From: Candidatus Aenigmatarchaeota archaeon
GTDB lineage: Archaea; Aenigmatarchaeota; Aenigmatarchaeia; QMZP01; QMZT01
DNA: 64,000 bases
Reading direction: 5' to 3'
Assembly: GCA_016932735.1 (NCBI GenBank)
Contig: JAFGCI010000004.1
Coordinates: forward strand, 124,711-188,710
In this document: piece by piece, positions 35,665-64,000 of the stretch
Layout: the number at the start of each line of letters is the position of its first letter
Numbering within the stretch: the stretch's first letter is position 1
The notes under the pieces: model-generated
Database searches by the model: none
What the model saw: the letters and a program-made list of their open reading frames with translations, nothing else
What the model was told of the DNA's origin: nothing
Made by a program: the position numbers and the translations under genes

Positions 35665-36591
35665 ATGTCTGGGTATTTTATAATTGAGTCAGGAAGGAAG
35701 AACAGAACATGCGAAATCATGATTGTTGATAAGCCTGAAAAACTGGAAGCAATGTCCAATATCATAGCATGGAAGCTTCTCGAATTAATGAAGACTCCTC
35801 AGTGTCCTATTGACCTTGCAAGAGCGCTGAAAATTCACGAGCAGAAAGTCTATTATCACATAAGAAAGCTGAGAGATGCAGGGATCATTGAGGAGGTCAG
35901 GACAGAAAGTCGGCATGGAACCGTGGCAAGGTTCTATGAAATAAAATCCAGTGCTATTGGCACGTTTTTGCCAGGAGCAAAAATGGAAAAGATAACCTTT
36001 GCTGCTCCCCGATACAACAGGAACATGGAACCTTTCATTGTTGAAGGGAGATCGAACTTTACGATAGTGGTCGGCTCACCGGAGCCACACGGACCATTCC
36101 GAGCCCGCGCCTCGGATGCGATGTGTGCAATCGATTTAGGTTTGTTCTTGGGTTCCTTCACAACGGGAATTGAGGAAGCCAACTACAAACTGGACGTCGA
36201 AATCAGAGAAAGGGATTTGAAACAGAATTTGATAATAATAGGCGGTCCTGTTGCCAACATGATTACGAAAAAAATAAACGAGAAGATGCCCATAAAAATA
36301 ATGCTTAAAATGGACAGGAGTATATTCTCAGCACTTTCAAAAAAATACTACGATAACGATGCAAGCGGTTATATCATTGTAACTGATAATCCATGGGCAA
36401 AGGGAAAAAGGATAATGGTTCTTGCCGGAAAAAGATTTATCGGTACGCGGGCAGCAGTGCTTTTTCTGATAAAAAAATTCGACAAAATATTCGAGGGCAA
36501 CAGATGGGACAGCAATATACTGGCACGCGTTGTCAGAGGATACGATATGGACGGTGACGGGATAATAGACACCGCGGAGCTCATTGAATAA
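35665..36591 (+). CDS. Winged-helix (ArsR/TrmB-like) transcriptional regulator with an uncharacterised C-terminal domain
   Basis: N-terminal HTH (SNIIAWKLLELMKTPQCPIDLARALKIHEQKVYYHIRKLRDAGIIEE). C-terminal ~200 aa without recognisable motifs. Divergent from glmS and immediately upstream of the giant surface-protein gene. Confidence 0.5.
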   Translation: MSGYFIIESGRKNRTCEIMIVDKPEKLEAMSNIIAWKLLELMKTPQCPIDLARALKIHEQKVYYHIRKLRDAGIIEEVRTESRHGTVARFYEIKSSAIGTFLPGAKMEKITFAAPRYNRNMEPFIVEGRSNFTIVVGSPEPHGPFRARASDAMCAIDLGLFLGSFTTGIEEANYKLDVEIRERDLKQNLIIIGGPVANMITKKINEKMPIKIMLKMDRSIFSALSKKYYDNDASGYIIVTDNPWAKGKRIMVLAGKRFIGTRAAVLFLIKKFDKIFEGNRWDSNILARVVRGYDMDGDGIIDTAELIE

Positions 36592-42600: not shown

Positions 42601-45600
42601 CTAAGGAACGGGAAAGAATGCCCGTCTTCTATATGCATGGACAATTATTACAATTTGGGAGAAGGTGTTCTCAGGTTTAATGTAACCCAGTTTACAAACT
42701 ATTCAAGTTCCGAAAACAGCCGGCTTGAAATCTGGGACAGCGGTGATGAAGAGGGCGGGCTTAATATACACAATCCCGGTGATATTGTGGCATTCTATGC
42801 CAATTATACCAATTTGACAAGTTCCGAATCAATAAACGGAACTGGAATAAACTGTACAATAAATTTCGAGGATGGCAGCATCAACATGACCTTTAATGAA
42901 AGCTCTGCTATATACTGGTATAACAGGACTTTCACGACAGCCGGGCTGAAAGAATGGAACGTTTCCTGCAACGGTTCAGTTCAGGACTATGAGCCCCTTA
43001 TCGTCACGGAAACAATTACCATATACGAGCCATGGTGGAACGACAGCTGGAAGTACAGGATTCCAGTGACTATAGAGAATTATTCATATGTGCTTGAAGA
43101 CTTCCAGGTTCTGATAACAATTGACAGTTCAAGCGCTCCTGAAAACTGGAACTGGTCCCAGCAGAACGGAGTCCGCTTCGTTTGGGTGAACGATTCAGGC
43201 GACATTGAAATTCCTCATTATACACCTTACTGGAGTGCCGTTTCTGAGGAAGCGCAGATATGGATAAAGATGCCTGAGATTTCGAATGTTACCAATGAAA
43301 CTGTTCACCTGTATTATGAAAATCCGTCAGCTTCAGATACAAGCAACGCCACAAAAGTCTATGATGTCTATAATGACTTTGAATCCGGAATGGATTATTT
43401 TACACAAAGGAACACAGACGGCGGAGCATGTTCATTAAGCGGGGGAAGGCTTGTCTGCGATCCGAACACACAATGGTCAGGCGCTTATGCCTACACAGAT
43501 TACAACTTCACAACAAAGTATGGATACTACATAGAATTCCGGATGTGGAAAAACCAGTCGACATCAGGATCACCTCCCTTCGGATTCAGTACAGTTTATA
43601 TGAGGAAACCTTATCCGGATCTGGGCTATGAGACTACCTATTATTATACAGCCCAGTCGTCGTCGCTGATAATAGAGGATCGTGTCGATACAGGAAGCTA
43701 CAATGAACAGCAGACTTATGCCAAATGGAACAACGGCACATTCACAGGCAAAGATGACAAATCATGGGCTCAGTACGATAACCAGCCTTATGATTATATT
43801 GTGGTATGGGATACGGACAGCAACATTCTTTCCCAGAACGTAACCCATAACGGTACTTTGCATTCTTCCCAAAGTTATATTCCTGAAAGCGTAATAACCG
43901 ACATTGGAAGCTGGTGGAAGCTGGAAGTCGGAACCTTTGGCTACTATGACACTAATGCAGAATATGATTCCATATCTATGAGAAAATACATAGCAGATGA
44001 AATTGCTCTGTATTACGGCGAAGAGGAGACATCCGGACTCGTTCTAAGCGTAACCAGCCCGTCAAACACATCCTATTCGAATGCGACAATGACTTACAGC
44101 GGATATACAAACAACAACGCTACAATAAGAATGAGCATCAACGGAAACGATAATTATACTTTCTGCTCAAGCTGCACGTCTTTTGGCCTGTCGACATCTG
44201 AAAATGTTACGGAAGGCTCCAATAACGTGACCTTCTGGGCAATCAGCACTGCAAATACATCAGTGGTTGTCAATGAAACAGTATGGTTTTACTTAGATAC
44301 GATTGTGCCTGAAGTTGAATGGAATCCGGAAGCGACCGAGTCAGGGACGCAGTCAAACGTTGAAATTTTGATTAACTGCTCTTTTGATGAAACAAACCCC
44401 CATACAAAAGGATACCAGTTCAATGGAACAAATTCGACCTCATGGGACGGCAACGACGGAATGAATTACTGGGTTGTAAAGAACAGTCTGGAATTCGGAA
44501 ACTACAACGATATATATTGCTGGATAAATGACACCCTCGGACATTATAACGAGACTTCAAAAAGAGAAATAAGCATTCTATGGCTGGATTGGTGGGACGC
44601 GGACTGGACACTAAGAACACCCATAAGTCTTGAAGAAAAAGCGGATAAATATGACTTAATTAATATGACCTTTATGCTGTCGATTAATACATCAAAACTT
44701 TATAATGAAGGCAAAATAAGAGACGACTGCGGGGATATAAGGTTTGTCTATAATGAATCGCATAAGGAGATTCCATATAACTTCACGGAATGTGAAATCA
44801 CGGGCGGAAATACGACATTCTGGATAATGTTTGATCTCGATCGTGCTGATACAATGCTACTGTACATGTACTACAACAATTCAGAGGCGTCAGCAACAAG
44901 ACAGACTCTGAAGCCATACGATACTGAGGATTGTACATTCTTTGACAGTCTTGACGGCTCGACAGCAGGTTCTATAACAGGCTCTGAATTCACGGACTAT
45001 GAATGGGTTACTGATGGCAGGGGAGCAGGCATGCTTTATGAACTTACATCGTCATTTGAGAATTCATGGGCTTACAATCCGGGTTCCGAGGGAACTATTG
45101 AATTCTGGCTAAAGCTTGACGAGGAAATAAATACATCAAGCACGGTGTCTGCCAAGACAATAATTTCATCGGGAAGGAACGGCATATCATTTGATCAGGC
45201 AAGCGGCGCAAATAATGTTCCGGGCCACATTATATTTGGCATCTCACCATCTGCGGGATTCTATTCGGAGATTTACACAAATCAGGACAAATGGTATGAA
45301 GATAACTTCTATCATATAGCCGTTACGTGGGACGGTTCCACTCAGAGCATATATGTAAACGGAACCCTTGACAAGAGCCAGACGCAGACGAGAGCAGGTG
45401 GATGGGGTTCATCTGTTCTGACAAACAGGAATTCCAACTGGGGGAGCAATGCTTATAAGATAAGTAACGTAAGATTATGCCCGGCAGCAAAAACATCCTT
45501 CCAGTATGTCGTTTATCCGGAGCCGAATTCAACTATTCAGCCGGAGGAAACAGTGCCTTTCCTTGATATCGGTTCACCAGTCAATACAACCTATTATTCG

Positions 45601-47625: not shown

Positions 47626-47870
47626 TTCATTCCAGAGCCAATAATTATATAAATTATATAATTAATTAACCAACATACGAGTGGGCAAGAATCAGTGCTT
47701 GTCAGAGCAATAGTTAAAACACGAGTGCGAGGTGTTTTGTGAGGGGAGAAGCGAGGGGAGTCGTTAGATGTTTGGTTATATCTAATAAGAACTCCTCATT
47801 TTTTTTACCGGTAAGAGAACAGCCGATTTACTCTTATCTCTCCCCCAAATAACCGGTCAGGGAGAGTCAG

Positions 47871-48395
47871 ATGGAAGTAGAAAGGTTTGAATGGAAAGAA
47901 GAGGCAAAAAGGCGAATTCCGGATTTAAAAAGGTACATATTGATACTGACAGTTGTACTTATAACAGTCGCAATTATTACGGCGCTAATATTATTTCCCC
48001 CCGATTTATCTATTTTCAGTTTTAATCAGCCGTCAATTGAAGATATTAGTTCAGAATTGACAATATCTCCCGCGAGAAACGTTGCGGAAGAAAAGTATAT
48101 AATGACGATAGGGGAGGAGTCTACCATAAATTTTTCATTCCTTCCTGACAAGACAGGTGAGGTTAAATCCTCTATAGAACTCCCTCCAGGAGTGCAGTTG
48201 ATATCCGGTGAAATGCAGCTGAATGACAGTATTCAGTCTAATCAGACAAACTCTCTTAATGCTTACATAAGGGCTGTCCGTGTCGGCAAATGGACTATAA
48301 AAGGTTTAGTCATAACGGACAACGGGACATTCGAGAAATCCTTTGATTTATGCATAGATGTCCTGGAAGAAAATGCAAGGGATAGGTGTAAATGA
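47871..48395 (+). CDS. Small membrane-anchored hypothetical protein, translationally coupled to the second giant gene
   Basis: 174 aa with one TM helix (ILILTVVLITVAIITALILF), then a beta-rich domain. Its TGA stop overlaps the ATG of the next gene (ATGA at 48392-48395). Confidence 0.45.
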   Translation: MEVERFEWKEEAKRRIPDLKRYILILTVVLITVAIITALILFPPDLSIFSFNQPSIEDISSELTISPARNVAEEKYIMTIGEESTINFSFLPDKTGEVKSSIELPPGVQLISGEMQLNDSIQSNQTNSLNAYIRAVRVGKWTIKGLVITDNGTFEKSFDLCIDVLEENARDRCK

Positions 48396-51300
48396 AAAAA
48401 TCCCAAGTAAAATTTGGGTCTGGGCAGTTATCAATCCTTTTCGTATTCATAGCTGTGCTTATTTTTACGGTCTCATTTACAGGCATAGGGCAATCTGCAT
48501 CTCCTATAGTAGTAACATGTAACAAGGATAACTATGACACTAATGAGGTAATGGCATTTCAGGTTCAGGGAGATGCCGGCAAAGAATTCGGATTCTACAT
48601 ATACGGACCGGACGGGGAAAAAGTCTTTCCTTTAGGAGATCCTGTCTGGACTCTGAACAGTTACGGAATGCACAATTTCTATCTTGAAGGATTTGGAGAA
48701 AATGGTTTATACAAGGCCGTTGCTGTATTCGGTGAAGAAAGTTTTGAGAAAGTCTTTACTGTCGTAAGCGCTGCTGAATCAGAAAGCAATATTGAAGATA
48801 AGCAGGAATTATTGCCGGTTGAAAAGAATGTCGAAGAGGAAACAATGAACGGGGAAAAAACCGAGACCGAAATACAGGCATCAAAAAGGCCGCCCGGAAA
48901 ATATATGCATTACAAAAAGATATTGTCGTACCAGCCTGATGCAATAAAAGAAATACCTGAAGGAGCGATAAACGTCAATGTCTATACAGTCGGTAAGCCA
49001 GGAAAAGGAACTCTTGCGGATAAAACAGGACCATCTGAAACCGTCATAGAATATTACGCGCCTTCAGGGCCAGTAAGAGGTTCGGATTCGTTCGGGAATC
49101 CTATACAGGAAAGCGCAGAAAATGAAAGATACAAGCTGGCAAGTTATGGTACCGTTATAAATCTCGTTGAAGCGAAGGAGACACCTGGAAAAGTAAGACT
49201 CACTTATGAAATCATGAATGAAGGCGGAAAGGATTTCAGTTACATAGCATTAACCTCTTCCCAGAAGCCTATAGTAAACGCTTTCCGATTTGCTGAAAGG
49301 TCCAGAACAGTGTACCATTCCAACGAAACTATTTATGAAGGTGACGTCAGGGAAAGCCACCCCTACGCGACACGAAAGGATTACATACCCTACGATGAAA
49401 ACCTTCAGGAATCAAACTATACTGTAATATGCTATGCATACGAGGATTCCGTCCCTTACACCGAAAGGGAATATATAGAAATAAAATCGATTGCAATATT
49501 AACAGACTTCATTAACGAATGGAATGCGGAATCCAACATCATATTCGATCCGATAAAGGAGGAGCTGGAAGCGGCCGGAGCCAATTATGACATAAATATG
49601 CTTGAACCTGATATACTGCCCACATTTGATGAGACCGTCTACATATACCGCCTTGAACATAATCCTTCAGAGAGCACATACATAGAATATGAAACTCCTA
49701 ATGAGAAGACGAAGTTTCTTCTTCTTGATCCTGCCGGAGGCTCCTGGTGGAATTCCTCCTGGCTTTATACAATGAACCTGACCGTGGATTCATCCCTGGT
49801 TGATGCGGAATTGACAGACTTTCCGGTAATGGTCAACCTCACTTCCGGAAGGTTTAATTTCTCCAGAGCGCAGAGCAATGGAGAAGACATAAGATTCGTG
49901 GATAACTATTATAACGACTTGCCACATGAAATCGAGTACTGGAATGCGACATCACAGCAGGCGATAATCTGGACCCGACTTTCAAATGTATCAAATACCA
50001 CCGACACAACGTTCTGGATGTATTACGGTAATGATGCTGTATCCGACGGTCAGAACATGACAGGTGTATGGGATTCCGAATTCCTTCTTGTCCAGCATCT
50101 GGATGAAACCAGCGGGACATACCATTACGATTCGTCTCAATATGGAAACGACGGAACGGTAAGCAGCGTCACAATGGACTCCGCCGGAAAGATAGACGGC
50201 GGAGACCAGATTCTTGGCGGAAGCGGCAGATATGTACGCCACGACTTCAACACTTCAAATGTTGTGACAGTGTCTGCATGGGCGCAGCTTCCGGATAACA
50301 CCGACGACGACATGATATGGGTGATAGACAGGGTCGGCGTAAACGACCTTGACCTTTGGTTTACTGATGGATACACATCACCGAGGCTTTTCCTGAATAC
50401 ATGGGACAGCGACGGCAACCCTATATGCAGCCAGCCATCAGGTGTCGGCAACTGGCATCTCTATACAATGGTTATTGATAACGGAAACACAAACCTATAC
50501 ATCGACGGACAGCTTGCAGGCTCTCCTGGCTACAGAGACCCTACAGGAGTCGGATTTTACATATCATGGACAACGACTTACGGATGGAATGGCTACGTCG
50601 ATGAAGTCCGTGTATCCAATACTTCAAGAAGCCTTGCTTGGATTAATGCATCTTTCTACGCTCAGAATGATTCTCTGATTATATACGGCAAAGAAGAGGC
50701 AAGTTCTGATGTCTGGTGGAACATTTCATGGGATTTCAGAATTCTTGTAATTGTCAACAGCACCAATTTCACAAGAGACGACGACCCCATTGAAAAGTTT
50801 ATCAATTTCACGCAGGAATTGGAAAGTCTGGGCGCGGCGGGAAAGACCTTTGACAATAACTCAATACGAGTTTTTGAATATGATACAGCGACAAACCGTT
50901 ATCTTCATGAAGTCCCGTCCCAGTTTGACAATTCTTCCAGTTATAATGCAACGACTAACGCCTACGGCGAAGTCATATGGATAATGAACGGGACGACGCA
51001 GAACAATACTATAAGGAAATATTACATTTATTTTGATACGACAGATAGCCCTAAGTCAGAGCCTTCATATTACACCGACTTGTCATACACGTTTAATTCC
51101 GGAAATGCTGTAATACAGAATGAGCATTTCGAGGCGACTCTTGACGATTCTGGGGTCATTTCAGACATTGAAAATTACAATGGAAGCGGAACAGATGTCA
51201 TTGAAAACGACTGGTACTGGAACGCTTTCAGGACAGTTGACGATTGGGCAATACAGTCTTTCACGGCAGATTGGGTAAGAAGATATTGCGGGCCCGTAAG

Positions 51301-54300
51301 ATGTACCATTTCCTCGGAAAACATAACGGTCACGGATACTTCCTATGCAAACACAACATATTATGTTTATTCAAAAGTCCCCGAAATCAGAAGCCTCAAG
51401 TCGTGGACAATGTCCGCAAATGAAGGAATGCAGATAGTCGATGATCTTAATGTAGGTGGAGGGAACACATTCAACTGTACTGCAGGAGCAAATCCGTCAG
51501 TCACGGGAACAACTATGATGGATTCTTCAGGCGACAATGAGAGAACAGGCATTGACAGAAGTGCCGCCGGTCTCTATACCAGCGGCTGGTGGTCTTACAG
51601 AGTTATCGGAGCTTCAATAGACGCTTTTGCCGTTGTCAGAAAATACGCACACAACAGCACAGGAGGCGACTTCCAGATGCATACAAACTGGTACGACGGC
51701 GGCGAGCATTCCGCAGGCTGGGAATCCGGATATAATGGGGGAGCAGATTTCCAGAATGGGCAGACATACACAATCGCAAACTGTTATTACCTGGCAAATT
51801 CGACCGATTCCGACTACCAGTATGCTTTCGGTTATTATAATAAGACAATGTCTCCGGTAAATATAAATCTCAACAAGACAGAAGGTCTCGCAAATCCGAT
51901 GATTTCAAGCTCAAATATACAGGCAAACGACACCAATCCACAGGCCGGAGACGCGGTATTGATAAACGCCACAATAATAAATGACGGCTACAACAATGCA
52001 AGCAACATTAAAGTGAGGTTCTTTGACGGCGATGAAAACGGAATACAGATAGGTTCAGATAATTTGATAGAGTTTCTCGGACCCGGAGAAAACGGAACAG
52101 TAGAGGTTGTATGGGACACGACACTCAAAGGCGGAAGCCATACAATTACCGTTGTAATAGACCCCGAAGATTTTATCTTATCAAATCCTTCCGATAACAT
52201 AGCAAACATAACAATAAATGTAGAATCGTCTCTCGATCTAACAGTTCTTAACAGCGAGATATTTTTTGACAACGATGTCCCCTCTGCGGGAGAGGCTGTT
52301 AATATTACAGCCACAATACGCAATACAGGAACATCTACGACAGCATCTCCGGACGTGCGTGTGAAATTCTTCGACGGAGATCCCGGAGACAATCCCAGCT
52401 CGCCTTTATCGAACCAGATAGGAACAGATAAACTCATCTCCTCACTCCCTCCGGGAAATTCCTCAAACGTATCCGTTCTCTGGGACACCACAGGAGAGGA
52501 TGGCTATTACGACATTTATGTATGGATAGATCCATTTGACGTTTTCTTGGAAGACAATGAAACAAATAATAAAGCATACAGAGAAATCGCGGTCAACCCC
52601 CCGGAGCTTTATCTGAGTTCTAACGATATTATTTTTAATGTGACAAGTCCGATAGAAGGAGAGGATCTTCTAATTAATGCAACCATTCACAACAGCGGAG
52701 GAAATCCCGTTTACAACGTTCTCGTTTCATTCTATCAGGCGGCTGACGGACAGAACTACACACTGATAGATACAACGACATTGTCAGAGATAGGCAATGC
52801 TTCTTCAGAGAACGCCAGCGTTTACTGGGATACAACAGGGAATTCAGGAAGTTACACCATATTGGTATCAGCAGATTCTAATGACAACATTCCTGAGCAA
52901 AATGAAGACAATAATAATGCAACGAAACCTCTTTTCATAACACCCAATGTATGGGTATGGTGGAACAGTTCGTGGCATTACAGGATTCCGGTCACAATAA
53001 ATACAGGAAGCTATTCAAGAACAGACGAGCCGATAGAGAAATTTATCAACTTTACATACGAGCTTTATTCCCTGAATGTGACCGATGCATTAGACAACAA
53101 TTCCATAAGGGTCATAGAATACAACACAACCACAGGAAAGGCGATACACGAGATGCCGTCGCAGTTCGACAATGTATCGTCTTATAACAGCTCGATAAAT
53201 GCGTACGGTGAAGTAATATGGATTCTTAACGGAACTACTCCAAGCAACACCGACAGGTATTTCTTCATTTACTTTGACATTATAAACAACTCAAAAACAG
53301 CTCCTTCATATATCACAGATTTATCCGGCTCATTCAATGCCGGAAATACCCTTATACATAGCGACCATCTCAATGTGACCATAGACAACTCGGGCGTCAT
53401 AGACGACATAAGAAGCCTTGACGGAAACAGCTCTGATGTCGTCGAGAACTGGTACTGGAACTATTTCAGGGTCGAGAATCCATGGACGAACCAGGATTAT
53501 GCCACCGGCAACTGGGCATACCGCTACTGCGGTCCTGTCAGGTGCAAGGTAATAGTGGACGGCATAACGCTGAACGCCGACTTCTCCAATCTCAACACGG
53601 CATATCATGTCTATTCACAGTCAAGGGAAGTCAGGAGCTTCAAGAACTGGACAATGGTCAATTCACAGGGCCTTCAGATAGGCGACGACCTTAATGTCGG
53701 CGGATTGACCAATTTCACATGCACAGGTTCGAACCCGAGCTGGATAGAGACAGATTACATGGATACAGTAAGCGATGGTGAAAGGACCGATAGGAGCGGA
53801 TCTTATGCATACGAAAGCGGCTGGTGGGCATACACAATTACGAGCAGCAGCTACTGGGACGCGTATGCAGTTGTCAGGAAGTATGTAAGGGATGATCTGG
53901 GAAACAACATCACGATGCACACGAATTGGTGGGATGACGGCGAGCATGCCGCCGGATGGGAGCAGGGAGCAGAATATGGGGGAACAGATTTCACAGCAGG
54001 AAGGTCTTACTCGGCGGCAAACTGGTATTACGTGACGACGAACACGAACACGACGAGCTACCAGTACGCGGTCGATTATTATGACAGGACTCTTAATCTT
54101 TCACAAATAAATGTTTCGGGGGCTGAAGAGGTTCCCGAATTCAATGCCACGATAACATCTTCTGTAGGCGACCAGATAAGGGGAACTCTTATCAATCTGG
54201 AAGCTTCTGCCACAAACGAAGGAACTGTGGACGCTCTTGATGTATGGCTTAACTGGACACTGCCATCCGGATGGTCTGTTGATACAGGAACAGCAGAAAA

Positions 54301-57300
54301 ACCTCTCGGAAAATTGTCAGCTGGAGATACCGAATGGAACAATATAAGCGCCAATAATTATGGCGCCGCCCTTGGAGAACAAATATTATACTTCAACGCA
54401 AGTTCAGCCGACGGAATTGCTGGCGGAGATTACATAACTTTCAACCTTTCAGCAAATACATATCTTTTTGATTTCCAGAGCGATAAAGAGGAGCCAAAGG
54501 TGGGAGAGACCATCGTGTTTCAGGTCAAACTCGCATACGATAACGGAACTCAGATACCTGGCCAGAACGTCACGTTTTATGACAAGACCGACGGCGTCCT
54601 GATGGGTTCCAACATTACAGGCTCGCCTGCCTATCTTGAATATCTCATACCTTTAAGCGCCAGCGTCGGTACTCACGAAATAAACGCATCGTTCACAGGA
54701 AACGATTCGGTTTTCATTGAATCTTCTTACATAATTTATGAAATAGACGTGAAAGATGCTCCGCATATCAACAGCGTCTCAGCTTCTCCCCAGACAATCG
54801 GATACGGTTATACCGTTACTATTACTGCAAATGTAACGGACCAGACAGGAGTTGATACTGTAAGGATAAATATAACTTATCCTGCAGGGTCTTATTACGA
54901 GTATGATATGATTAACACCAGCCAGGACATTTATGAGTACAACTTCACAGACAGCTATACATGGGGTTCTTTCAGTTATACGATATGGTCTAACAACACA
55001 GACGGTGAGAATATCACAAGCTCTGTCAATTATTTCTATGTAAAGCCCAATCAGACAATGTCCATCCAGACGGATAAAACAGGCTACGGCCCCAATGAAA
55101 TGGTTGACCTGAAGCCGGCAGGTGATTGGTGGCGTGCATCATGGACATACAGGATTCCTATAAACATAACCGAGAATTCCGGGAGCAGCCTTACTGATTA
55201 CCAGATATATTACACCTTTGACAGCTCTGCTCTCATAGAATCCGGAAAGATGAACTCTTCATGCAAGGACATACGCTTTGCAGATACTTCCGGAACGGAG
55301 CTACCTTACTATCTTGAGGAATCGAACTGCAACACCAATGAGACGAATGTCTGGATAAAGGTTCCACAGATAACCGCGTCAGGAAACACAACCATCTACC
55401 TTTATTTCAACAATATGGAGGCGGAGAGCGAAAGCAACGTTACAGCCGTCTTCACTTATGACGAGCTTCAGGAACTTTATTACGAGATAAACAGCAGGCC
55501 GTCAAACGACAATCTAAATATATCGGCTTATGTGAATGGAACCAATGTTACCATCTCGACGCAATCAGCTCTTATAGACATTCAGGAAGTCGTGACTTTC
55601 AGTTCAATATCCCAGGGAGCCATCATAAATTCGACAGGTCCGATATCTGGAAAGATTCTCGACGACCAGACCGATACTTTCGCGCCCATGGCTTTTGCCG
55701 GGTCAAAATTTGGATTCCCGAGGACAAGAAATGGGACGGCTTATCTGGATGTATGGTTCATAAGGACGCCTTTCGGCGATGCGAACATCACGATATACAA
55801 CTATTCTGAAACAGGAATCCTCCAGAACAGCGACTCATTCTTCGTCGCCGAAGGGTTAACAACGACCCTGACATTCAATATAGATGATGAGGGAACAGGC
55901 CTTCTGGAATCCAACGTCTCAATACTTGCCGGATACAGACAGGGAGGAAACGATGCCGTGATTCTTTATCCGGCAACGACGGAATTATATGGCGTGTCAG
56001 CTCCAGGTTATGTGACCGTTCTTGAAGATGACACTGATTTGTATATATACCGTAGCGGAAGCAGTACATCTGTATCAACGAACCTGCAGAGGGGACAACA
56101 GTATTCTCTCGGTTCAAGCGGAACCCAGGGAACGGGAAACGCCTTCCATCTGTTATCTGACAAGCCCATCGTTGCGGCAAGCTTTGGAGACGGTGACGGG
56201 GGGGAGGCAATAGTCTTCTGGCATCCAAAGGAATTGAACACGGAGTACATAATTCCGACAGATACACAGTACATATCAATCTCATGCCCGCGAACAACAG
56301 AAATATCGCTTTATTACCCGAACGGGACACTGAACTCAACTGAGATTTGCACTTCTACAGATTCCGGTCCCGAATACCCGAGAAAGGCGTATTTTGGTTG
56401 CGGAACAACGAGCTGTGGTGCTGTATATCCTGCCGGCATGAGGGCTTTATCAAACGATACATTCTATGTATTTTATGAATACACTGACCAGGATGAAACC
56501 AATGTGTTAGGCCACATCCAGGCACGTAAGACGTCGTATCCGGAGCCAAACCTGTCTTCCGGAAACGAAGAGCTGATCGGCTCCATTTTCGACAACTTCG
56601 GCAGCGTTAACAGCACCGGATATTTCCTGATGAAGGTCCAGAAATATTCCGGCGGTTCCTGGGCTACTGCGTCTTCAGGAATAATACTCGAAGACAGGAA
56701 TCCTCCCCCAACCCAGAGGAACTTTACAGCATTCACATCGCTCGACCTTTCAACATTGTGGGGTGGTTGGAATACAAGCATCTGCGATCCCGGAACTTAC
56801 AGGGCTTATGTCGAGGTTGTCGATTCTGCTAATAACATACTTAAAGATGCATGGGGAAACGATCTTGTTTCAACTTACAACTTCACGCTCCTGTCCCCGA
56901 ATCCGGAAATAACAAACCTGACTCATGAGAACGGTTACGAGTACGGCATAGACGAATATGAAGTCGGAGATACGATAGAATGGATAAACATAACCATAAC
57001 CAACTACAATGCGACAGCCCTGAAGGCCAACATGACGCTCAATGTCATAGATTCCAGCGACGAGCAGGCTTCATGGGGACCCAGCTCAAGCCAGTATTGC
57101 GGTGATATACTCCCTGAAAACTCCTGCATGAAGAGATGGGACAATTCAAGCAACGGTTATCAGATACCTTTAGATGCGACCCCGGGAACTTATACGTTTA
57201 CATGGAACGTCTCTCTTGAATGGGAAAACGGAGACGGTTTTGTAAGCCTCAACTCATACACGTTCAAAGTTCACAATCTTTCAAACTATCTTGAAAGTGA

Positions 57301-60300
57301 GCTTTCCCCTTCCAGAATAAACCTGGGCGAAAATTCCACATACAACCTCACGATATTCAATCCATGGTCTAAGAATGCAACCGATATCAACATAACAATC
57401 AACTGCCCGGAAAATATAAATCTGACATGCCGGTGCGACATGTCGGGGCAGAGCGGCGAAAACTGTACTATAAGCAACATAGAAAGGACGCTTCTGGACA
57501 CCTGGCTGGAAACTTCATGGCCTTACAGAAGGCCCATCAACATAACAGAAAACACCGGCGAGGAACTTAGTGATTACCAAATTTATTATGTTTTCGATAC
57601 TACCCCCTACATAGCCTCCGGAGTCATGAATTCATCATGCAAGGACATAATGTTCTCTGATTATACAGGGGCAAATCTTCCTTATTTCCTTGAGCCGGGA
57701 ACATGCAATACGACAAACACGAGCATCTGGATAAAGGTTTCCAATATTGCCGCATCGGAAAACACAACAATATACCTTTATTATGGCAACATGAACACGG
57801 AAAGCGCAAGCAATGAAATCAGCACTTTCAGTTACGACACATTGCAGGCTTTGTACTATGAGCTTAGCGACGAAGCCTCGGGAAGCAATGTCTATATATC
57901 AGCTTATCAGGACGGAACATCAGTAAGCGTTGAAGGGACGACAGAGACGGTTGACAGGCAGGAATCTGTTTTGTTCGGATCTGTCTCACAAGGAACTTCA
58001 ATAAGCTCTACCGGACCTGTTTCAGGAAAGATGGCGATAACAGAGACCGGTACAATAGCACCTATAGCATTTGCCGGAAAGCAGTTTGCATTCCCATATG
58101 TAAGGACGGGAAACAACAATGATGTCTGGCAGGTCAGGACGCTTTTCGGCGATGCGAACATCACGCTTTACAACTACACAGCAGCGGGAGCTTTTGTAAA
58201 CTCTACATCTTTCATAATTCCAGATTCAACGACAACAACTATAACATTCAACATAAATGATACAGGAATGGGAATTCTGGAATCGAACGTTTCAATAATT
58301 GTTGAATACAGGGCCGGAGGAGGGAGTGACTCCGAAGTCCTTTATCCTGCAACAACCGAACTTTATGGAGTGTCAAGCAGCGGCTACGTCGGTGCTCTGG
58401 AAGACGGGACGACTGTATATGCGTACAGCAGCACCGGGAACAGTCCCGCCACAATAAATTTGGACAGAGGCGAAAGCTCTGCCTTGGGTTCTACAGGAGG
58501 TCAGGGAGCAGGCAGTTCTTTTCATCTCGTTTCCAATAAACCCATTGTCGGAATAAGCCAGGCAGACGGTGACGGGAATGAGGCAACAGTCTTCTGGCAT
58601 CCGAGAGAATTCAACAGTGAATATATCATCCCCTCACCCTCGGAATATATTGCAGTTGCATGTCCTCGGACAACAAATATCACGCTTTATTATTCCAACG
58701 GAACCTATTATTCGAGCCAGCTCTGCCAGTCCACAAACTCAAGTTCTGAATATGCAAGGAAAGCTCTTTTCACATGCAGTGGAAGTGCATGCTACACTGC
58801 AGGTATGATGGTTTCATCAAACGACACATTCTTTGCATACCACGAATACACCGACCAGGATGAAACCAACATGCTTAGCTTTAAGCAGGCAAGGAAGTCG
58901 GTATCTTCCGAACCGACATTATCGACATTAGGAAACGAGGAAACAAACATGTATAATGAATCGGTAAGCTTCCTTCTGATTACAAATTCTTCCACAGAAT
59001 TCGGCGACTATGACGTGAATGTAACGGTCACATACAAAAATCTCGGCAATGAAACAAAAACATACGAATACAGGAACAACCAAATACTGGAAATAAGGGT
59101 TGAAGGAGTCCAGCTCACTGATTTCAATTACCCTGTTAATGTCACAAGAAACAACACGATAAACCTGACCACTTATGTCAACAATACACGCGATTCCGGA
59201 GACGCGACCAACGTGTGGGTAAATTACACGACTTTGCCTGCGAACTGGTCGATAACAGCAGGCTACCAGAACCTTATGGTAGGTGACCTCTCTCCGGGGG
59301 AAATCAACTGGAGCAATATAACAGTTGATATAAACATAAACGCCACGCAGGGCCCCCAGCAGCTTGCAATAGAATCTAGCTCCGATGAAGGCTACTTCGA
59401 CAGGATAAGACCGGAGATAACAGTCTTTGCTGGGACCGATGTGAATCTTTATTCAAACGTTACTGATATAGTCATAGGAAATCAGGTAAAGCTTCTCGCC
59501 CACCTGACACTGGATACAGGAGCGGATTCAGTTTCAAAAAATATATCATTCTATGACAATTCCACTTATCTCGGCTCTGCAATAACCAACTCCACTGGCT
59601 GGAGCCAGCTTATTTACACCATACCGGTAGGCTCTGAAGTCAGGAACCACACATTCAATGCTACATATAGTATCAATTCCACTTCATACACATGGCAGTC
59701 TTATGATGAAAAGAATATCTCGGTTCACGACAAACCTTTAATAACAAATATAAGCGCATTGCCCAATGTACAGGGATTCGGGCAGAATGTAACCATAACA
59801 GCAAACGTTACGGATGAGGAAACCGTCGACTTTGTTAGAAGTTACATAACATATCCCAACACATCCTCGTTGTTGCTGACGCTTTCCAACGCGACTATGG
59901 ACATCTACAACAATACTTTCTCCAATACATGGCAGGCCGGCATTCATAGTTATTATATATGGGCAAACGACTCTCTTGGATACTATAATACATCAGACAC
60001 ATTTAATTTCCGCGTAAGCTCAAACGGAAGCCTTATAATAAGAGGCGACAAGAGTTCCTACGGTCCCAATGAAAATATAGCCGTCAACGGGACGCCTCTT
60101 GACTGGTGGAACGATTCATGGATTTACAGGAAGGCCGTCATCATTCAGGAGACAGGCGGCAGCAACCTTTATGAATACCAGATAAAACTGAACCTGACTT
60201 CCGGTAATTTCAATTTCTCAAAGACTAACCAGACAGGAGATGATATCAGGTTCATCTGGTATAATTCGACAAGTTCCCAGTATGAACTGGTCCCATACTG

Positions 60301-63300
60301 GATAGAGAAATGGAATTATAGTATGCCTTCGGCTTTAATATGGATTCAGGTACCGAAAATCACCGCTTCCCAAAACACGACCATATATATGTATACCACA
60401 CCATCACTTGAGGTTTCAGCTGCGAGCAACAAGACTTCTGTATTTTCTTTCGATGCGGGGAGGGGAATCTATTATATAGTTAATTACAGGGATTCAGGTG
60501 TTCAGGTAAACCTGACAGCCTACGAAAACTCGACAAATATAACCATAGGAGCTTACACCACACTGATTAACGAATACGATACGGAAACCATAAACCCTTC
60601 ATACGTATCTCAGGGAGCGGAGATAAATGTAACGGGACCCCTGTCCGGAAGGGCTTTGGGAACATCCAACGATGCAATACACCCGATATCATGGGCTGGA
60701 AAAAACTTCACCATGGCCTGTACCAGAAGCACCGATGAATGGAGCTTCTACTCGCCTTTCGGAAATGCAAACGTAAAGATATATGAAGGTGTATCTGGAA
60801 CCGCGAAAACCTCTTTCACTGTTACAAAAGGAACTGCATATACATCATCAACCGATATTTCAGATGGCAACGGTGTTGTCATCGAATCGGATTATCCGAT
60901 CCTTGTGACACACGGAAGCTCGCAGGCTCAGGATGTTGCCCCCTTATATCCGGCAAGCAACGACCTTTGGGGCGTCTCTTCAGGAAACTCGTATTTCTCA
61001 GTTCTTGAAGACGGGACAAGCGTGACCGTGTATTTCAGCGACGGTACATACGACAGCTATTCTAATCTTATGAGGGGGACATACTCTACAATAGGGAATG
61101 GCGGAGGAGACGGAACAGGCGACGGTGTCCACATTGTCTCCAGTAAAAGAATATCCGCCATATCTCAGGGAGACGGCGACGGAGGAGAGATAACATCGTT
61201 CCTTCCTGAAGACGAGCTTGACACAGAATACGTGCTCCCGACAGGAGCTGAATATGTGGCTGTAGTGTGCGTAAGAGATAACACAAACGTGACAGTATAC
61301 AATTCCGATGGCTCGTTCAATTCGAGTATGATGTGCAACACGACTTCATACCCATATCCGAATAAACTGGTGTTTGGAAACATATCGGGAGATACACCGG
61401 CTCCTGTCTGTTATTCGCAGGGTGTCAGGTTCGTTGCAAACGACAGCATATATATATACTATGAATTCGCTGATGGCACGAACGACGGGGAAGAAACAAA
61501 CATACTTAATGAAAAGCAGGGCCGCCAATATTTCTATCCGGAACCCGTTCAAAGGATATCATATGAAGAAGAAAATATGGATTATGCACATCTTCAGGAC
61601 GTCGGCTCGACCAACATGAGTGGTTACCTTCTTGTAAAAATACAGCAAAACTCCGGCGGCGGATGGGTTGATTTTGCAACAATTATTAATGATATTTCTG
61701 ATTCGACAACAAGAACGATTAATACATCCATACCGCTGAACATAACAAAACTATGGAATGATATAGGCGGATGGAACACCGACAGATATCAGAACGGAAG
61801 CTACAGGATATATGCATCATTTCTGGATCCTTCGGGCAATGTCCTTTACAGCGACGACAGAGGCTATATGACATATATACACAATTTCACCATAACACCT
61901 CCGCCGGCTATAATATATATTACTAATATAACAGTCTACGACGTGACCGACAAAGAGAACCCACAGACCAATACATCAGAATTGACAGGCTATGGGACAA
62001 ACACAACATTCAACATGTATACAGGAAGCCAATACCGTGTTGAATTCCTTCTTGAAAGCAGCGCTTCAAGCACTGGCTCTTGGAATATAGCCGGTTCCAA
62101 TGCAACCCATTCCGGCCTCCATTCCAACTGGACAGTCAATGCCAGCAAGGGTTATGGGAACTGGTGGAACTCTTCATGGACTTATAGGTTCCCCGTAACA
62201 ATAAACGCGACGTCGCAAAACAGGACAGACCTTCCGATAGAATATGTGGTGAACTTCACCCAGAAGCTGGCCGATTTCGGTATTACAGAAAAAACATTCG
62301 ACAACAATTCCATAAGGGTTATAGAGTATAATACAACAACTGACGCAGTCCTCCATGAAATACATTCCCAGTTTGATAATTCAAGCACATACAATGCAAC
62401 TATAAATGCCATAGGAGAGCTTATCTGGATAATGAACGGAACCACTCTTAGCGGGGACGCAAGGAAATACTACATTTATTTTGATACGACAGATAACCCT
62501 AAGTCAGAACCGTCATATACAACGGAACTGTCTTATACATTCAATGCCGGAAATACCCTTATACATAGCGACCATCTCAATGTGACCATAGACAACTCAG
62601 GCGTCATAGATGACATAAGAAGCCTCGATGGAAACAGCTCGGACGTCGTCGAGGACTGGTACTGGAACTATTTCAGGGTCGAGAATCCATGGACTCTCCA
62701 GAGCAACGTCAACGGAAACTGGGCATACCGCTACTGCGGTCCTGTCAGGTGTAAGATAGTAGTCGATGGAATAACCCTGACAGGTGACTTCTCTGACCTG
62801 AACACAACATATCATGTCTATTCACAATCAAGGGAAGTCAGGAGCTTCAAGAACTGGACAATGGTCAACTCCCAGGGCCTTCAGATAGGCGACGACCTGA
62901 ATGTAGGAACGCTGTCCAACTTTACATGCACCGGTTCAAACCCGAGCTGGATAGAAGTTGATTATATGGATGCGTCGGGTTCTTCAGAGAGAACTGACAG
63001 GAACGGTGCGTATGCATATGACAGCGGCTGGTGGGCTTACACAATTACGAGCAGCAGCTACTGGGACGCGTATGCAGTTGTCAGGAAGTATGTGACAGAC
63101 GACCTTGGGAATAATTTCACAATGCATACCAATTGGTACGATTCTAGTGAACATTCAGCAGGATGGGAGCAGGGAACAAGTAACGGAGGAACAGACTTTA
63201 CCGCGGGAAGGAGTTATTCAGCAGCAAACTGGTATCATGTGACTACAAACACGAATAAGACGAGCTACCAGTACGCGGTCGATTATTATAATAATGTCCT

Positions 63301-64000
63301 GAACGAGGTCTCAATAACCAACGGAAGCGTGAGCCAGGTTCCGTCACCTTCAGATGTATGGTATTCGAACATAACATCAACTTATGTGGGCGGCAATTTT
63401 ACATCAGGCATTGTCAGCTGGAACACAAGTCTGGGAGGGACTGTCGGAATAGGAGGGCAATCTAAATTCTATTACATACTGAACATAACAAATAACACGC
63501 AGGGCGTATATCCGGTGACTCTTCTGGTTGATGACAGTAATTTCATAAAGAACGATTATTCCACATTCAATATTATATTCTCCGAGACAAATCCACCGGT
63601 GTTGTATAATAATATCTATGGAAGGACTTTGTCCAAGATAAACAGAGGCCAGTCAACCACATTTTATGCAAGGTGGAACGAGACAATAAAATCAGCATTC
63701 ATTGAATACAACTCCACCACACCTGCCCTCAATAATTATTCCATAACATTGCCAAGCCCGAATTTGCAGAATTGGACAAACTATACGATATCGACGACAA
63801 ATATATGGATTCTTGGACAGCATTCAGGGAAGATATATGCGACAGACCTCAACGATAACCAGAACAATACACTGAGTTACCTTACGTTTGAAGTGTGGGG
63901 AGTCGCAAAACTGTCTTCGTCGGCACTTTCACCCTCTGCCATAAACGTTACAGAGAATTCGACAATGAGCTGCAGGGTAATAGATACAACAGACAATAAT
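48392..64000 (+). CDS. Second giant surface protein (more than 5200 aa, 3' end beyond the window); paralog of the first giant with DUF2341-like, LamG-like, CARDB-like and Ig-like modules
   Basis: A continuous open frame from the ATG at 48392 to the window end by manual translation. The ORF track lists no long plus-strand ORF here because no stop lies inside the window. N-terminus MKKSQVKFGSGQLSILFVFIAVLIFTVSF, then a domain about 50% identical to the first giant's N-terminal domain (FPLGDPVWTLNSYGMHNFYLEGFGENGLY vs FPIGDPLWKLNSHGMHNFYLEGFSESGMY). At least 7 WWNxSWxYR (DUF2341-like) modules, one LamG-like domain (about 50230-50650), three CARDB-like domains. Sequon-dense throughout. Confidence 0.75.
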   Translation, partial: MKKSQVKFGSGQLSILFVFIAVLIFTVSFTGIGQSASPIVVTCNKDNYDTNEVMAFQVQGDAGKEFGFYIYGPDGEKVFPLGDPVWTLNSYGMHNFYLEGFGENGLYKAVAVFGEESFEKVFTVVSAAESESNIEDKQELLPVEKNVEEETMNGEKTETEIQASKRPPGKYMHYKKILSYQPDAIKEIPEGAINVNVYTVGKPGKGTLADKTGPSETVIEYYAPSGPVRGSDSFGNPIQESAENERYKLASYGTVINLVEAKETPGKVRLTYEIMNEGGKDFSYIALTSSQKPIVNAFRFAERSRTVYHSNETIYEGDVRESHPYATRKDYIPYDENLQESNYTVICYAYEDSVPYTEREYIEIKSIAILTDFINEWNAESNIIFDPIKEELEAAGANYDINMLEPDILPTFDETVYIYRLEHNPSESTYIEYETPNEKTKFLLLDPAGGSWWNSSWLYTMNLTVDSSLVDAELTDFPVMVNLTSGRFNFSRAQSNGEDIRFVDNYYNDLPHEIEYWNATSQQAIIWTRLSNVSNTTDTTFWMYYGNDAVSDGQNMTGVWDSEFLLVQHLDETSGTYHYDSSQYGNDGTVSSVTMDSAGKIDGGDQILGGSGRYVRHDFNTSNVVTVSAWAQLPDNTDDDMIWVIDRVGVNDLDLWFTDGYTSPRLFLNTWDSDGNPICSQPSGVGNWHLYTMVIDNGNTNLYIDGQLAGSPGYRDPTGVGFYISWTTTYGWNGYVDEVRVSNTSRSLAWINASFYAQNDSLIIYGKEEASSDVWWNISWDFRILVIVNSTNFTRDDDPIEKFINFTQELESLGAAGKTFDNNSIRVFEYDTATNRYLHEVPSQFDNSSSYNATTNAYGEVIWIMNGTTQNNTIRKYYIYFDTTDSPKSEPSYYTDLSYTFNSGNAVIQNEHFEATLDDSGVISDIENYNGSGTDVIENDWYWNAFRTVDDWAIQSFTADWVRRYCGPVRCTISSENITVTDTSYANTTYYVYSKVPEIRSLKSWTMSANEGMQIVDDLNVGGGNTFNCTAGANPSVTGTTMMDSSGDNERTGIDRSAAGLYTSGWWSYRVIGASIDAFAVVRKYAHNSTGGDFQMHTNWYDGGEHSAGWESGYNGGADFQNGQTYTIANCYYLANSTDSDYQYAFGYYNKTMSPVNINLNKTEGLANPMISSSNIQANDTNPQAGDAVLINATIINDGYNNASNIKVRFFDGDENGIQIGSDNLIEFLGPGENGTVEVVWDTTLKGGSHTITVVIDPEDFILSNPSDNIANITINVESSLDLTVLNSEIFFDNDVPSAGEAVNITATIRNTGTSTTASPDVRVKFFDGDPGDNPSSPLSNQIGTDKLISSLPPGNSSNVSVLWDTTGEDGYYDIYVWIDPFDVFLEDNETNNKAYREIAVNPPELYLSSNDIIFNVTSPIEGEDLLINATIHNSGGNPVYNVLVSFYQAADGQNYTLIDTTTLSEIGNASSENASVYWDTTGNSGSYTILVSADSNDNIPEQNEDNNNATKPLFITPNVWVWWNSSWHYRIPVTINTGSYSRTDEPIEKFINFTYELYSLNVTDALDNNSIRVIEYNTTTGKAIHEMPSQFDNVSSYNSSINAYGEVIWILNGTTPSNTDRYFFIYFDIINNSKTAPSYITDLSGSFNAGNTLIHSDHLNVTIDNSGVIDDIRSLDGNSSDVVENWYWNYFRVENPWTNQDYATGNWAYRYCGPVRCKVIVDGITLNADFSNLNTAYHVYSQSREVRSFKNWTMVNSQGLQIGDDLNVGGLTNFTCTGSNPSWIETDYMDTVSDGERTDRSGSYAYESGWWAYTITSSSYWDAYAVVRKYVRDDLGNNITMHTNWWDDGEHAAGWEQGAEYGGTDFTAGRSYSAANWYYVTTNTNTTSYQYAVDYYDRTLNLSQINVSGAEEVPEFNATITSSVGDQIRGTLINLEASATNEGTVDALDVWLNWTLPSGWSVDTGTAEKPLGKLSAGDTEWNNISANNYGAALGEQILYFNASSADGIAGGDYITFNLSANTYLFDFQSDKEEPKVGETIVFQVKLAYDNGTQIPGQNVTFYDKTDGVLMGSNITGSPAYLEYLIPLSASVGTHEINASFTGNDSVFIESSYIIYEIDVKDAPHINSVSASPQTIGYGYTVTITANVTDQTGVDTVRINITYPAGSYYEYDMINTSQDIYEYNFTDSYTWGSFSYTIWSNNTDGENITSSVNYFYVKPNQTMSIQTDKTGYGPNEMVDLKPAGDWWRASWTYRIPINITENSGSSLTDYQIYYTFDSSALIESGKMNSSCKDIRFADTSGTELPYYLEESNCNTNETNVWIKVPQITASGNTTIYLYFNNMEAESESNVTAVFTYDELQELYYEINSRPSNDNLNISAYVNGTNVTISTQSALIDIQEVVTFSSISQGAIINSTGPISGKILDDQTDTFAPMAFAGSKFGFPRTRNGTAYLDVWFIRTPFGDANITIYNYSETGILQNSDSFFVAEGLTTTLTFNIDDEGTGLLESNVSILAGYRQGGNDAVILYPATTELYGVSAPGYVTVLEDDTDLYIYRSGSSTSVSTNLQRGQQYSLGSSGTQGTGNAFHLLSDKPIVAASFGDGDGGEAIVFWHPKELNTEYIIPTDTQYISISCPRTTEISLYYPNGTLNSTEICTSTDSGPEYPRKAYFGCGTTSCGAVYPAGMRALSNDTFYVFYEYTDQDETNVLGHIQARKTSYPEPNLSSGNEELIGSIFDNFGSVNSTGYFLMKVQKYSGGSWATASSGIILEDRNPPPTQRNFTAFTSLDLSTLWGGWNTSICDPGTYRAYVEVVDSANNILKDAWGNDLVSTYNFTLLSPNPEITNLTHENGYEYGIDEYEVGDTIEWINITITNYNATALKANMTLNVIDSSDEQASWGPSSSQYCGDILPENSCMKRWDNSSNGYQIPLDATPGTYTFTWNVSLEWENGDGFVSLNSYTFKVHNLSNYLESELSPSRINLGENSTYNLTIFNPWSKNATDINITINCPENINLTCRCDMSGQSGENCTISNIERTLLDTWLETSWPYRRPINITENTGEELSDYQIYYVFDTTPYIASGVMNSSCKDIMFSDYTGANLPYFLEPGTCNTTNTSIWIKVSNIAASENTTIYLYYGNMNTESASNEISTFSYDTLQALYYELSDEASGSNVYISAYQDGTSVSVEGTTETVDRQESVLFGSVSQGTSISSTGPVSGKMAITETGTIAPIAFAGKQFAFPYVRTGNNNDVWQVRTLFGDANITLYNYTAAGAFVNSTSFIIPDSTTTTITFNINDTGMGILESNVSIIVEYRAGGGSDSEVLYPATTELYGVSSSGYVGALEDGTTVYAYSSTGNSPATINLDRGESSALGSTGGQGAGSSFHLVSNKPIVGISQADGDGNEATVFWHPREFNSEYIIPSPSEYIAVACPRTTNITLYYSNGTYYSSQLCQSTNSSSEYARKALFTCSGSACYTAGMMVSSNDTFFAYHEYTDQDETNMLSFKQARKSVSSEPTLSTLGNEETNMYNESVSFLLITNSSTEFGDYDVNVTVTYKNLGNETKTYEYRNNQILEIRVEGVQLTDFNYPVNVTRNNTINLTTYVNNTRDSGDATNVWVNYTTLPANWSITAGYQNLMVGDLSPGEINWSNITVDININATQGPQQLAIESSSDEGYFDRIRPEITVFAGTDVNLYSNVTDIVIGNQVKLLAHLTLDTGADSVSKNISFYDNSTYLGSAITNSTGWSQLIYTIPVGSEVRNHTFNATYSINSTSYTWQSYDEKNISVHDKPLITNISALPNVQGFGQNVTITANVTDEETVDFVRSYITYPNTSSLLLTLSNATMDIYNNTFSNTWQAGIHSYYIWANDSLGYYNTSDTFNFRVSSNGSLIIRGDKSSYGPNENIAVNGTPLDWWNDSWIYRKAVIIQETGGSNLYEYQIKLNLTSGNFNFSKTNQTGDDIRFIWYNSTSSQYELVPYWIEKWNYSMPSALIWIQVPKITASQNTTIYMYTTPSLEVSAASNKTSVFSFDAGRGIYYIVNYRDSGVQVNLTAYENSTNITIGAYTTLINEYDTETINPSYVSQGAEINVTGPLSGRALGTSNDAIHPISWAGKNFTMACTRSTDEWSFYSPFGNANVKIYEGVSGTAKTSFTVTKGTAYTSSTDISDGNGVVIESDYPILVTHGSSQAQDVAPLYPASNDLWGVSSGNSYFSVLEDGTSVTVYFSDGTYDSYSNLMRGTYSTIGNGGGDGTGDGVHIVSSKRISAISQGDGDGGEITSFLPEDELDTEYVLPTGAEYVAVVCVRDNTNVTVYNSDGSFNSSMMCNTTSYPYPNKLVFGNISGDTPAPVCYSQGVRFVANDSIYIYYEFADGTNDGEETNILNEKQGRQYFYPEPVQRISYEEENMDYAHLQDVGSTNMSGYLLVKIQQNSGGGWVDFATIINDISDSTTRTINTSIPLNITKLWNDIGGWNTDRYQNGSYRIYASFLDPSGNVLYSDDRGYMTYIHNFTITPPPAIIYITNITVYDVTDKENPQTNTSELTGYGTNTTFNMYTGSQYRVEFLLESSASSTGSWNIAGSNATHSGLHSNWTVNASKGYGNWWNSSWTYRFPVTINATSQNRTDLPIEYVVNFTQKLADFGITEKTFDNNSIRVIEYNTTTDAVLHEIHSQFDNSSTYNATINAIGELIWIMNGTTLSGDARKYYIYFDTTDNPKSEPSYTTELSYTFNAGNTLIHSDHLNVTIDNSGVIDDIRSLDGNSSDVVEDWYWNYFRVENPWTLQSNVNGNWAYRYCGPVRCKIVVDGITLTGDFSDLNTTYHVYSQSREVRSFKNWTMVNSQGLQIGDDLNVGTLSNFTCTGSNPSWIEVDYMDASGSSERTDRNGAYAYDSGWWAYTITSSSYWDAYAVVRKYVTDDLGNNFTMHTNWYDSSEHSAGWEQGTSNGGTDFTAGRSYSAANWYHVTTNTNKTSYQYAVDYYNNVLNEVSITNGSVSQVPSPSDVWYSNITSTYVGGNFTSGIVSWNTSLGGTVGIGGQSKFYYILNITNNTQGVYPVTLLVDDSNFIKNDYSTFNIIFSETNPPVLYNNIYGRTLSKINRGQSTTFYARWNETIKSAFIEYNSTTPALNNYSITLPSPNLQNWTNYTISTTNIWILGQHSGKIYATDLNDNQNNTLSYLTFEVWGVAKLSSSALSPSAINVTENSTMSCRVIDTTDNN
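51890..52930 (+). other. Three tandem CARDB-like (cell-adhesion-related, bacterial) domains inside the second giant protein
   Basis: Each unit ends with the CARDB-type E-x-N-E-x-N-N / D-N-I-x-N signature: DPEDFILSNPSDNIANITINV, DPFDVFLEDNETNNKAYREIAV, and SNDNIPEQNEDNNNATKPLFI. Confidence 0.55.
52957..54110 (+). repeat. About 1.15-kb intragenic repeat unit, copy B (DUF2341-like module plus a ~270-aa W/Y-rich domain)
   Basis: Long runs are nearly nucleotide-identical to 62160-63320, e.g. ccggaaatacccttatacatagcgaccatctcaatgtgaccatagacaactc... at 53340 and again at 62547. The minus-strand shadow ORFs 53330-53608 and 62597-62815 encode near-identical peptides. Confidence 0.75.
62160..63320 (+). 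repeat. About 1.15-kb intragenic repeat unit, copy C
   Basis: See copy B. A more diverged copy A lies at about 50711-51870. Confidence 0.75.

Follow-up and report, generated by a model that had tools for sequence, protein, structure and literature searches.

DPANN archaea are known to carry giant surface proteins, for which a role in attachment to the host is assumed (PMC10266531). Among them is the nanohaloarchaeal 'SPEARE' protein, SVXNc_0300, a giant membrane-anchored surface protein of 9,409 aa (PMC10266531). Clustered giant extracellular protein genes also occur in Apilactobacillus kunkeei, where dS varies strongly along giant1-5, a variation that was explained by short intragenic recombination tracts (PMC12863079). 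The recombination inferred in A. kunkeei is recombination between strains; among paralogues, the authors report finding no recent gene conversion (PMC12863079).

We analyzed a window of 64,000 nt that carries two giant genes in tandem. The window is archaeal in content, encoding PheRS alpha and beta of archaeal type, an archaeal MinD, RtcB, a FlaI-like ATPase and a HAD-CofD fusion, with a GC content of 41.7% and no tRNA genes. The second giant gene (gene 2) lies on the plus strand and, from an ATG at 48392, stays open for 5203 codons to the window end at 64000. By exhaustive HMMER search we identified the source protein as NCBI MBN2101901.1 (P0003, 5382 aa), which NCBI labels as a "DUF2341 domain-containing protein" of Candidatus Aenigmarchaeota, and its residues 1-5203 match the window translation at 100%. 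Because NCBI flags this protein as partial, the source contig must end within gene 2, and indeed the 189,247-bp public contig stops about 540 nt past the window end. The last 397 aa of the record showed no visible repeat elsewhere in the known part of gene 2.

Pfam places CARDB, DUF2341, Laminin_G_3, Big_3_5 and NPCBM_assoc domains in the protein, which also has one N-terminal hydrophobic anchor segment and 233 N-x-S/T sequons. From these sequence features we predict the product of gene 2 to be a giant extracellular protein, N-terminally anchored and heavily N-glycosylated, of adhesin-like function, which may serve in glycan binding or host attachment. Such a product would resemble SPEARE as a DPANN protein of more than 5,000 aa with an N-terminal signal/anchor and presumed host or surface attachment, and in a long ectodomain that combines Ig-like and LamG-like with other beta-sandwich domains and contains internal duplications. 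The SPEARE type has a VirB4/TraG-like ATPase domain in or next to the giant protein (PMC10266531); in the truncated gene 2, Pfam gave no such hit in the 5,203 aa within the window, and none is seen in the 5,382 aa of the record. In gene 2 the domain set is mostly DUF2341, and here two giant genes stand in tandem. Consecutive giant extracellular-protein genes and patchy dS are shared with A. kunkeei giant1-5, but in contrast to that bacterial case the signal in the archaeal gene 2 lies between paralogous modules of one gene in one genome.

Three homologous copies of a module of about 1.14 kb lie in the single reading frame of gene 2, almost exactly where the original prediction had placed them. 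All are on the plus strand: copy A at 50714-51847 (aa 775-1152; N-domain 50714-51088, C-part 51089-51847; module profile positions 1-379 by hmmsearch), copy B at 52958-54091 (aa 1523-1900; N-domain 52958-53329, C-part from 53330) and copy C at 62162-63298 (aa 4591-4969; N-domain 62162-62536, C-part from 62537). Their flanks differ to the point of not being alignable, and copy A is homologous yet diverged, with about 60% DNA identity to B and to C, both as had been proposed. The copies are dispersed at spacings of 2.2 and 9.2 kb. As direct repeats whose starts are spaced by 9,207 nt, which equals 3,069 codons, B and C are in frame with each other. No tandem or inverted repeats were found in the copy region.

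B and C had also been described as near-identical DNA, a description that does not survive measurement: over the intervals of the original prediction, DNA identity was 75.2% for B-C, 60.5% for A-B and 61.5% for A-C. Whole-module protein identity was 77% for B-C and 54% for A-B, with A at 54-55% to B and C. By BLASTN, no DNA self-match in the 28 kb holding both giant genes is stronger than B-C (79.0% over 999 nt, 53088-54082 vs 62295-63289, E=0). Set against the 80% identity that had been drawn as the lower limit for this pair, B-C falls below it over the whole copy (75%) but above it in the best 750-nt tract (83%). The long identical stretches attributed to the pair exist as exact runs, the longest of 61 nt. 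Exact runs of at least 25 nt measure 61, 56, 41, 40, 35, 31 and 26 nt, all within 53331-54082, and are confined to the 3′ two-thirds of the copy; on the plus strand in B coordinates they include 53331-53391, 53448-53487, 53510-53544, 53621-53661, 53831-53886 and 54052-54082.

Domain-sized DNA repeats in a surface-protein gene, between which in-frame recombination is conceivable, are shared with adhesins of the Alp/Rib, Bap and Esp types. In those adhesins the repeats are tandem and nearly identical, whereas the copies in gene 2 are dispersed, 60-83% identical in DNA and form no tandem array. Because they are far from near-identical, the A, B and C repeats are an ordinary feature of giant adhesin-like genes.

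The module consists of about 380 residues, an N-domain of about 124 aa followed by a C-part of about 255 aa. The N-domain starts with WWNxSWxYR and ends with YFD. A search of A, B and C against Pfam (hmmscan, E up to 10) returned no DUF2341 hit and nothing useful, while canonical DUF2341 copies elsewhere in gene 2 do reach the Pfam model. Aligned with the canonical DUF2341 copies of both giant proteins, the N-domain gave an hhalign probability of 96.7% (E=4.6e-10, 95 columns), and a WW[ND]xxW start is common to both. Judged by profile-level homology, the N-domain is a divergent DUF2341-type (PF10102) beta-sandwich that lies below the Pfam model. The start motif, the beta-sandwich fold and the profile-profile match are thus features it would share with DUF2341 proteins at large; it departs from the usual ones in that the A, B and C N-domains miss the Pfam model and in that a predicted supersandwich follows, not a LamG-type domain.

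The C-part (about 255 residues) is without a Pfam match. An AlphaFold2 model of copy B is all-beta, with a pTM of 0.82 and a pLDDT of 75, and has low-confidence residues at 150-180 and 240-310. Foldseek against the PDB matched the model to PL26 rhamnogalacturonan lyase, GH38 alpha-mannosidases, LacZ domain 5, YidC P1 and aldose 1-epimerases. The C-part is predicted to form a galactose-mutarotase-like beta-supersandwich, an assignment that is probable but not proven because the TM-scores are a modest 0.4-0.56, with E from 1e-7 to 1e-4. The beta-supersandwich fold is typical of carbohydrate-binding accessory domains.

At E<=1e-3 the module profile matched 822 representatives, most of the top-scoring ones over N-domain positions only, and Aenigmarchaeota and other DPANN archaea predominate among the taxon-named matches. 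The full module is far rarer: in a search of 1.8 billion protein representatives plus the genome collection, it turned up in only four sequences. Beside gene 2 these are a protein of 6,406 aa (P0004), a protein on a JGI contig (P0005; contig L004, same as L024) and a sequence from a MAG labelled Methanosarcinales (L006, CAZSAS010000006.1), each with a single full module. A metagenome scan for the module returned the already known JGI contig only, and word-indexed homologue searches returned N-domain relatives only, without recovering P0003. The genome-collection scan contained no record identical to the window, and exact look-ups of P0003 and of the gene 1 product matched no contig. We also observed that the nearest full-module relatives come from MAGs labelled 'Methanosarcinales' (L006) or 'uncultured archaeon' (L003, GCA_964537195.1), and the window protein is labelled Aenigmarchaeota; either the module crosses phyla or one bin is mislabelled.

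Gene 2 contains a second, larger repeat family of about 480 aa, which begins with a canonical DUF2341 domain. By blastp of protein chunks, one copy lies at 55127..56572, a further copy with 56% aa identity lies at 57503-58942 and another with 38% at 60104-61579, all on the plus strand and supported by Pfam DUF2341 matches. At the DNA level BLASTN aligned this family at 64% over 1386 nt. Since the ~480-aa module is also triplicated, the bulk of gene 2 consists of two triplicated super-modules.

Similarity between B and C is concentrated in one tract, module nt 375-1125, with 83% nucleotide identity inside and 60% outside. In B the tract spans 53330..54082 and its partner in C spans 62537..63289, both on the plus strand. 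A breakpoint scan (two-breakpoint max-chi-square, 200 codon-column permutations) gave a max-chi2 of 73 against a permutation maximum of 26 (n=200), with a breakpoint at module codon 125, which is the domain boundary. In the N-domain the three copies are about equidistant (aa identity 60% for B-C, 66% for A-C and 60% for A-B). In the C-part, B and C are 85% identical and A is 52-53% identical to either, no closer to them than to the modules of other organisms (59%). Neighbor-joining bootstrap support for B+C accordingly rose from 9% in the N-domain to 100% in the C-part.

Synonymous sites show the same split. The B-C pS was 0.50 (CI 0.41-0.60) in the tract and 0.80 (CI 0.68-0.93) in the N-domain, bootstrap intervals that do not overlap, and B-C dS was about 0.84 in the tract, with N-domain synonymous sites saturated. 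Unequal protein constraint therefore cannot explain the mosaic. Nor do these values fit the recent duplication of B and C that had been suggested: pS is 0.50 and dS about 0.84 even in the best tract, and saturation is reached in the 5′ third.

It could be argued that B and C arose by a single duplication of the whole module, after which the N-domain evolved fast under diversifying selection and the C-part was conserved, without recombination. Surface-exposed recognition domains are often quick to evolve, and the B-C dN of 0.34 in the N-domain against 0.087 in the C-part tract is what such a history would leave. However, pS differs as well (0.80 vs 0.50, with non-overlapping intervals), the N-domain does not group B with C as sisters (9% bootstrap, and A-C at 66% exceeds B-C at 60%), and N-domain dN is alike in all three pairs, so that there is no B-C-specific acceleration. 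We therefore consider a single whole-module duplication improbable.

Within the tract, the identity of B and C at synonymous sites is patchy. Among codons for identical amino acids, 31% carried a synonymous difference in the tract, compared with 47-62% in every other comparison, and the synonymous differences were clustered (runs test P=0.0008). The exact runs of 61, 56, 41, 40 and 35 nt went beyond codon-shuffle expectation (P=0.0025 for the 61-mer), and runs of at least 31 nt in the tract numbered five against 0.6 expected from the codon shuffle. Part of this patchiness could stem from local codon or nucleotide constraint.

The 125 mismatches in the tract comprise 74 transitions and 51 transversions, fall at codon position 3 in 79 cases and show no adenine bias. 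Diversity-generating retroelements (DGRs) aimed at surface proteins occur in DPANN archaea, which lends some background to the notion that B and C are the template and variable repeats of such an element. Against it stand the mismatches themselves, mostly third-position transitions and free of adenine bias, the lack of a reverse-transcriptase domain among the ORFs scanned and a repeat of about 750 nt where about 100-150 nt would be expected. We give this notion next to no credence. The ordinary mismatch spectrum excludes a DGR, and gene 2 was ruled out as a DGR target on that ground.

Taken together, we favor, at a probability of about 0.7, an account in which an anchored giant protein carries an old module triplication whose B and C C-domains were later homogenized. 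The first step would be an old triplication of the ~380-residue module within a gene built of shuffled, duplicated modules, and its age follows from the saturation of synonymous sites. In a second step the C-terminal domain of B and C would have been homogenized from the domain boundary onward, through intragenic gene conversion or through replacement of one copy's domain by a duplicate of the other's. Gene conversion had been offered originally beside recent duplication, and it is conversion, or partial replacement, that the sharp domain-boundary breakpoint, the incongruent trees and the clustered synonymous differences argue for. The data, three paralogues at one locus, are compatible with gene conversion as well as with a domain-replacing partial duplication. 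Because tract dS is around 0.84 the homogenization was not recent, and because gene 2 is truncated at the contig end, copies beyond it may be the real donors. Some exchange of shorter patches probably followed and would account for the identical islands of 35-61 nt. Of the marks of concerted evolution, B and C display topological incongruence with a breakpoint and a reduced, patchy synonymous divergence, and they lack near-identity.

We also considered whether gene 2 is an active contingency locus, in which B, C and perhaps copies outside the known sequence recombine appreciably so that protein length or antigenicity varies. B and C are direct in-frame repeats 9,207 nt apart, which makes a deletion or duplication of 3,069 codons or a cassette exchange possible; an unequal B/C exchange would delete 57% of the gene 2 protein in frame. 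The minimal pairing length for homologous recombination is commonly cited as shorter than 35-61 nt, so the exact runs exceed it, and the patchy synonymous identity suggests repeated exchange in a gene inside which the source contig stops. On the other hand, identity peaks at 83%, in the best tract, and drops to 60% elsewhere, whereas the repeats of known repeat-variable adhesins are in tandem and over 95% identical. Gene 2 has neither the tandem nor the near-identical repeats that mark repeat variation: no tandem array occurs, and identity does not rise above 83%. Moreover, the one independent assembly was identical over 13.4 kb, and genome and metagenome scans together with Logan contigs yielded no second strain or variant of gene 2. 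An active contingency locus is in our estimation unlikely, and with no variant or second strain found, recombinational length or antigenic variation stays at the level of a possibility.

A related view would have the B/C C-domain as one of several cassettes that undergo ongoing, domain-bounded, short-patch conversion, with more copies possibly past the contig end. We hold this view to be doubtful. If it were true, a DPANN episymbiont would vary the glycan- or host-recognition surface of a giant attachment protein.

The repeats had been flagged as an assembly hazard, and an independent assembly bore this out. Through the 174-aa ORF upstream of gene 2 we found a Logan contig (L005, SRR13394437) that equals window positions 39948-53360 (13.4 kb) at 100%, without a mismatch. 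On the left, L005 begins 30 nt before the 67-nt exact repeat of gene 1 (39911-39977) runs out, and on the right it stops 30 nt into the 61-nt repeat shared by B and C (53331-53391), so both ends sit in the window's two longest exact repeats. As 30 nt is exactly k-1 for k=31, the ends fit graph branching at k=31. Given these low-k breaks and the end of the MAG contig within gene 2, the module number and the gene length are not final.

The same observations could be taken to mean that the copies or their arrangement arose by mis-joining or repeat collapse in the metagenome assembly, as k=31 contigs break at the repeats and the MAG contig terminates in gene 2. However, 17-40% of positions differ between the copies, each copy has flanks of its own, the longest exact B/C repeat (61 nt) is shorter than a normal Illumina read, and the frame stays open over 5,382 codons. 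For these reasons the window arrangement is unlikely to be an artefact. In addition, L005 reproduces 39948-53360 without a mismatch, and the observed similarity pattern is not what a swap at the 61-nt repeat would produce. We judge an assembly artefact very improbable.

The main worth of these results is a caution and a small annotation gain: the repeats are real but diverged to a moderate degree. Low-k assemblies break at them, and the public gene 2 is incomplete, with a length and module count that are not final. Two details are modestly new, namely the rare module that joins a DUF2341-like domain to a predicted supersandwich, and the homogenization of paralogous modules bounded by a domain junction. 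Should population data reveal active exchange, the locus would offer a tractable case for studying how an archaeal episymbiont varies its surface.

Gene 2 is preceded by a 174-aa ORF at 47871..48395 on the plus strand, which has one hydrophobic segment and no Pfam hit and is also called as a gene on L005. Its stop overlaps the gene 2 start (ATGA), an overlap that suggests translational coupling of the two. Giant gene 1 (36694..47625, plus strand, 3643 aa) lies in tandem with gene 2 and has internal repeats of its own. One gene 1 DNA repeat pairs 38644-39161 with 39820-40337 (71.5% over 530 nt), and an exact 67-mer at 38735-38801 and 39911-39977 is the longest exact repeat of the window, inside which L005 starts. 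The N-terminal ~170 aa of the two giant proteins, including the signal/anchor, are homologous (33% aa; 36694-37200 vs 48392-48900), and genes 1 and 2 are therefore paralogues at their 5′ ends; a 79-nt DNA match (78%) joins 36925-37003 and 48623-48701.

Elsewhere in the window, ORFs at 11307-14015 (902 aa) and 25605-26657 (350 aa) had no NCBIfam match and no Pfam match, respectively. Directly upstream of gene 1, 35665-36591 encodes a 308-aa protein with ArsR/HTH_20 and an S-layer-like outer domain (PF05124), and the giant gene of the 'uncultured archaeon' MAG (L003) also has HTH-family genes nearby. Within gene 1, aa 3145-3255 (46126-46458) match the Nup98-96 autopeptidase S59 family (PF04096, E=2.2e-10, Pfam). 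An internal paralogue of this region lies at about 42355-42708 (aa 1888-2005), with aa 1790-2110 and 3044-3361 about 40% identical. Both S59-like copies end in F(S/T)NYSS, resembling the Nup98 HF|S autocleavage site, and this archaeal giant surface protein may thus contain a self-cleaving domain.
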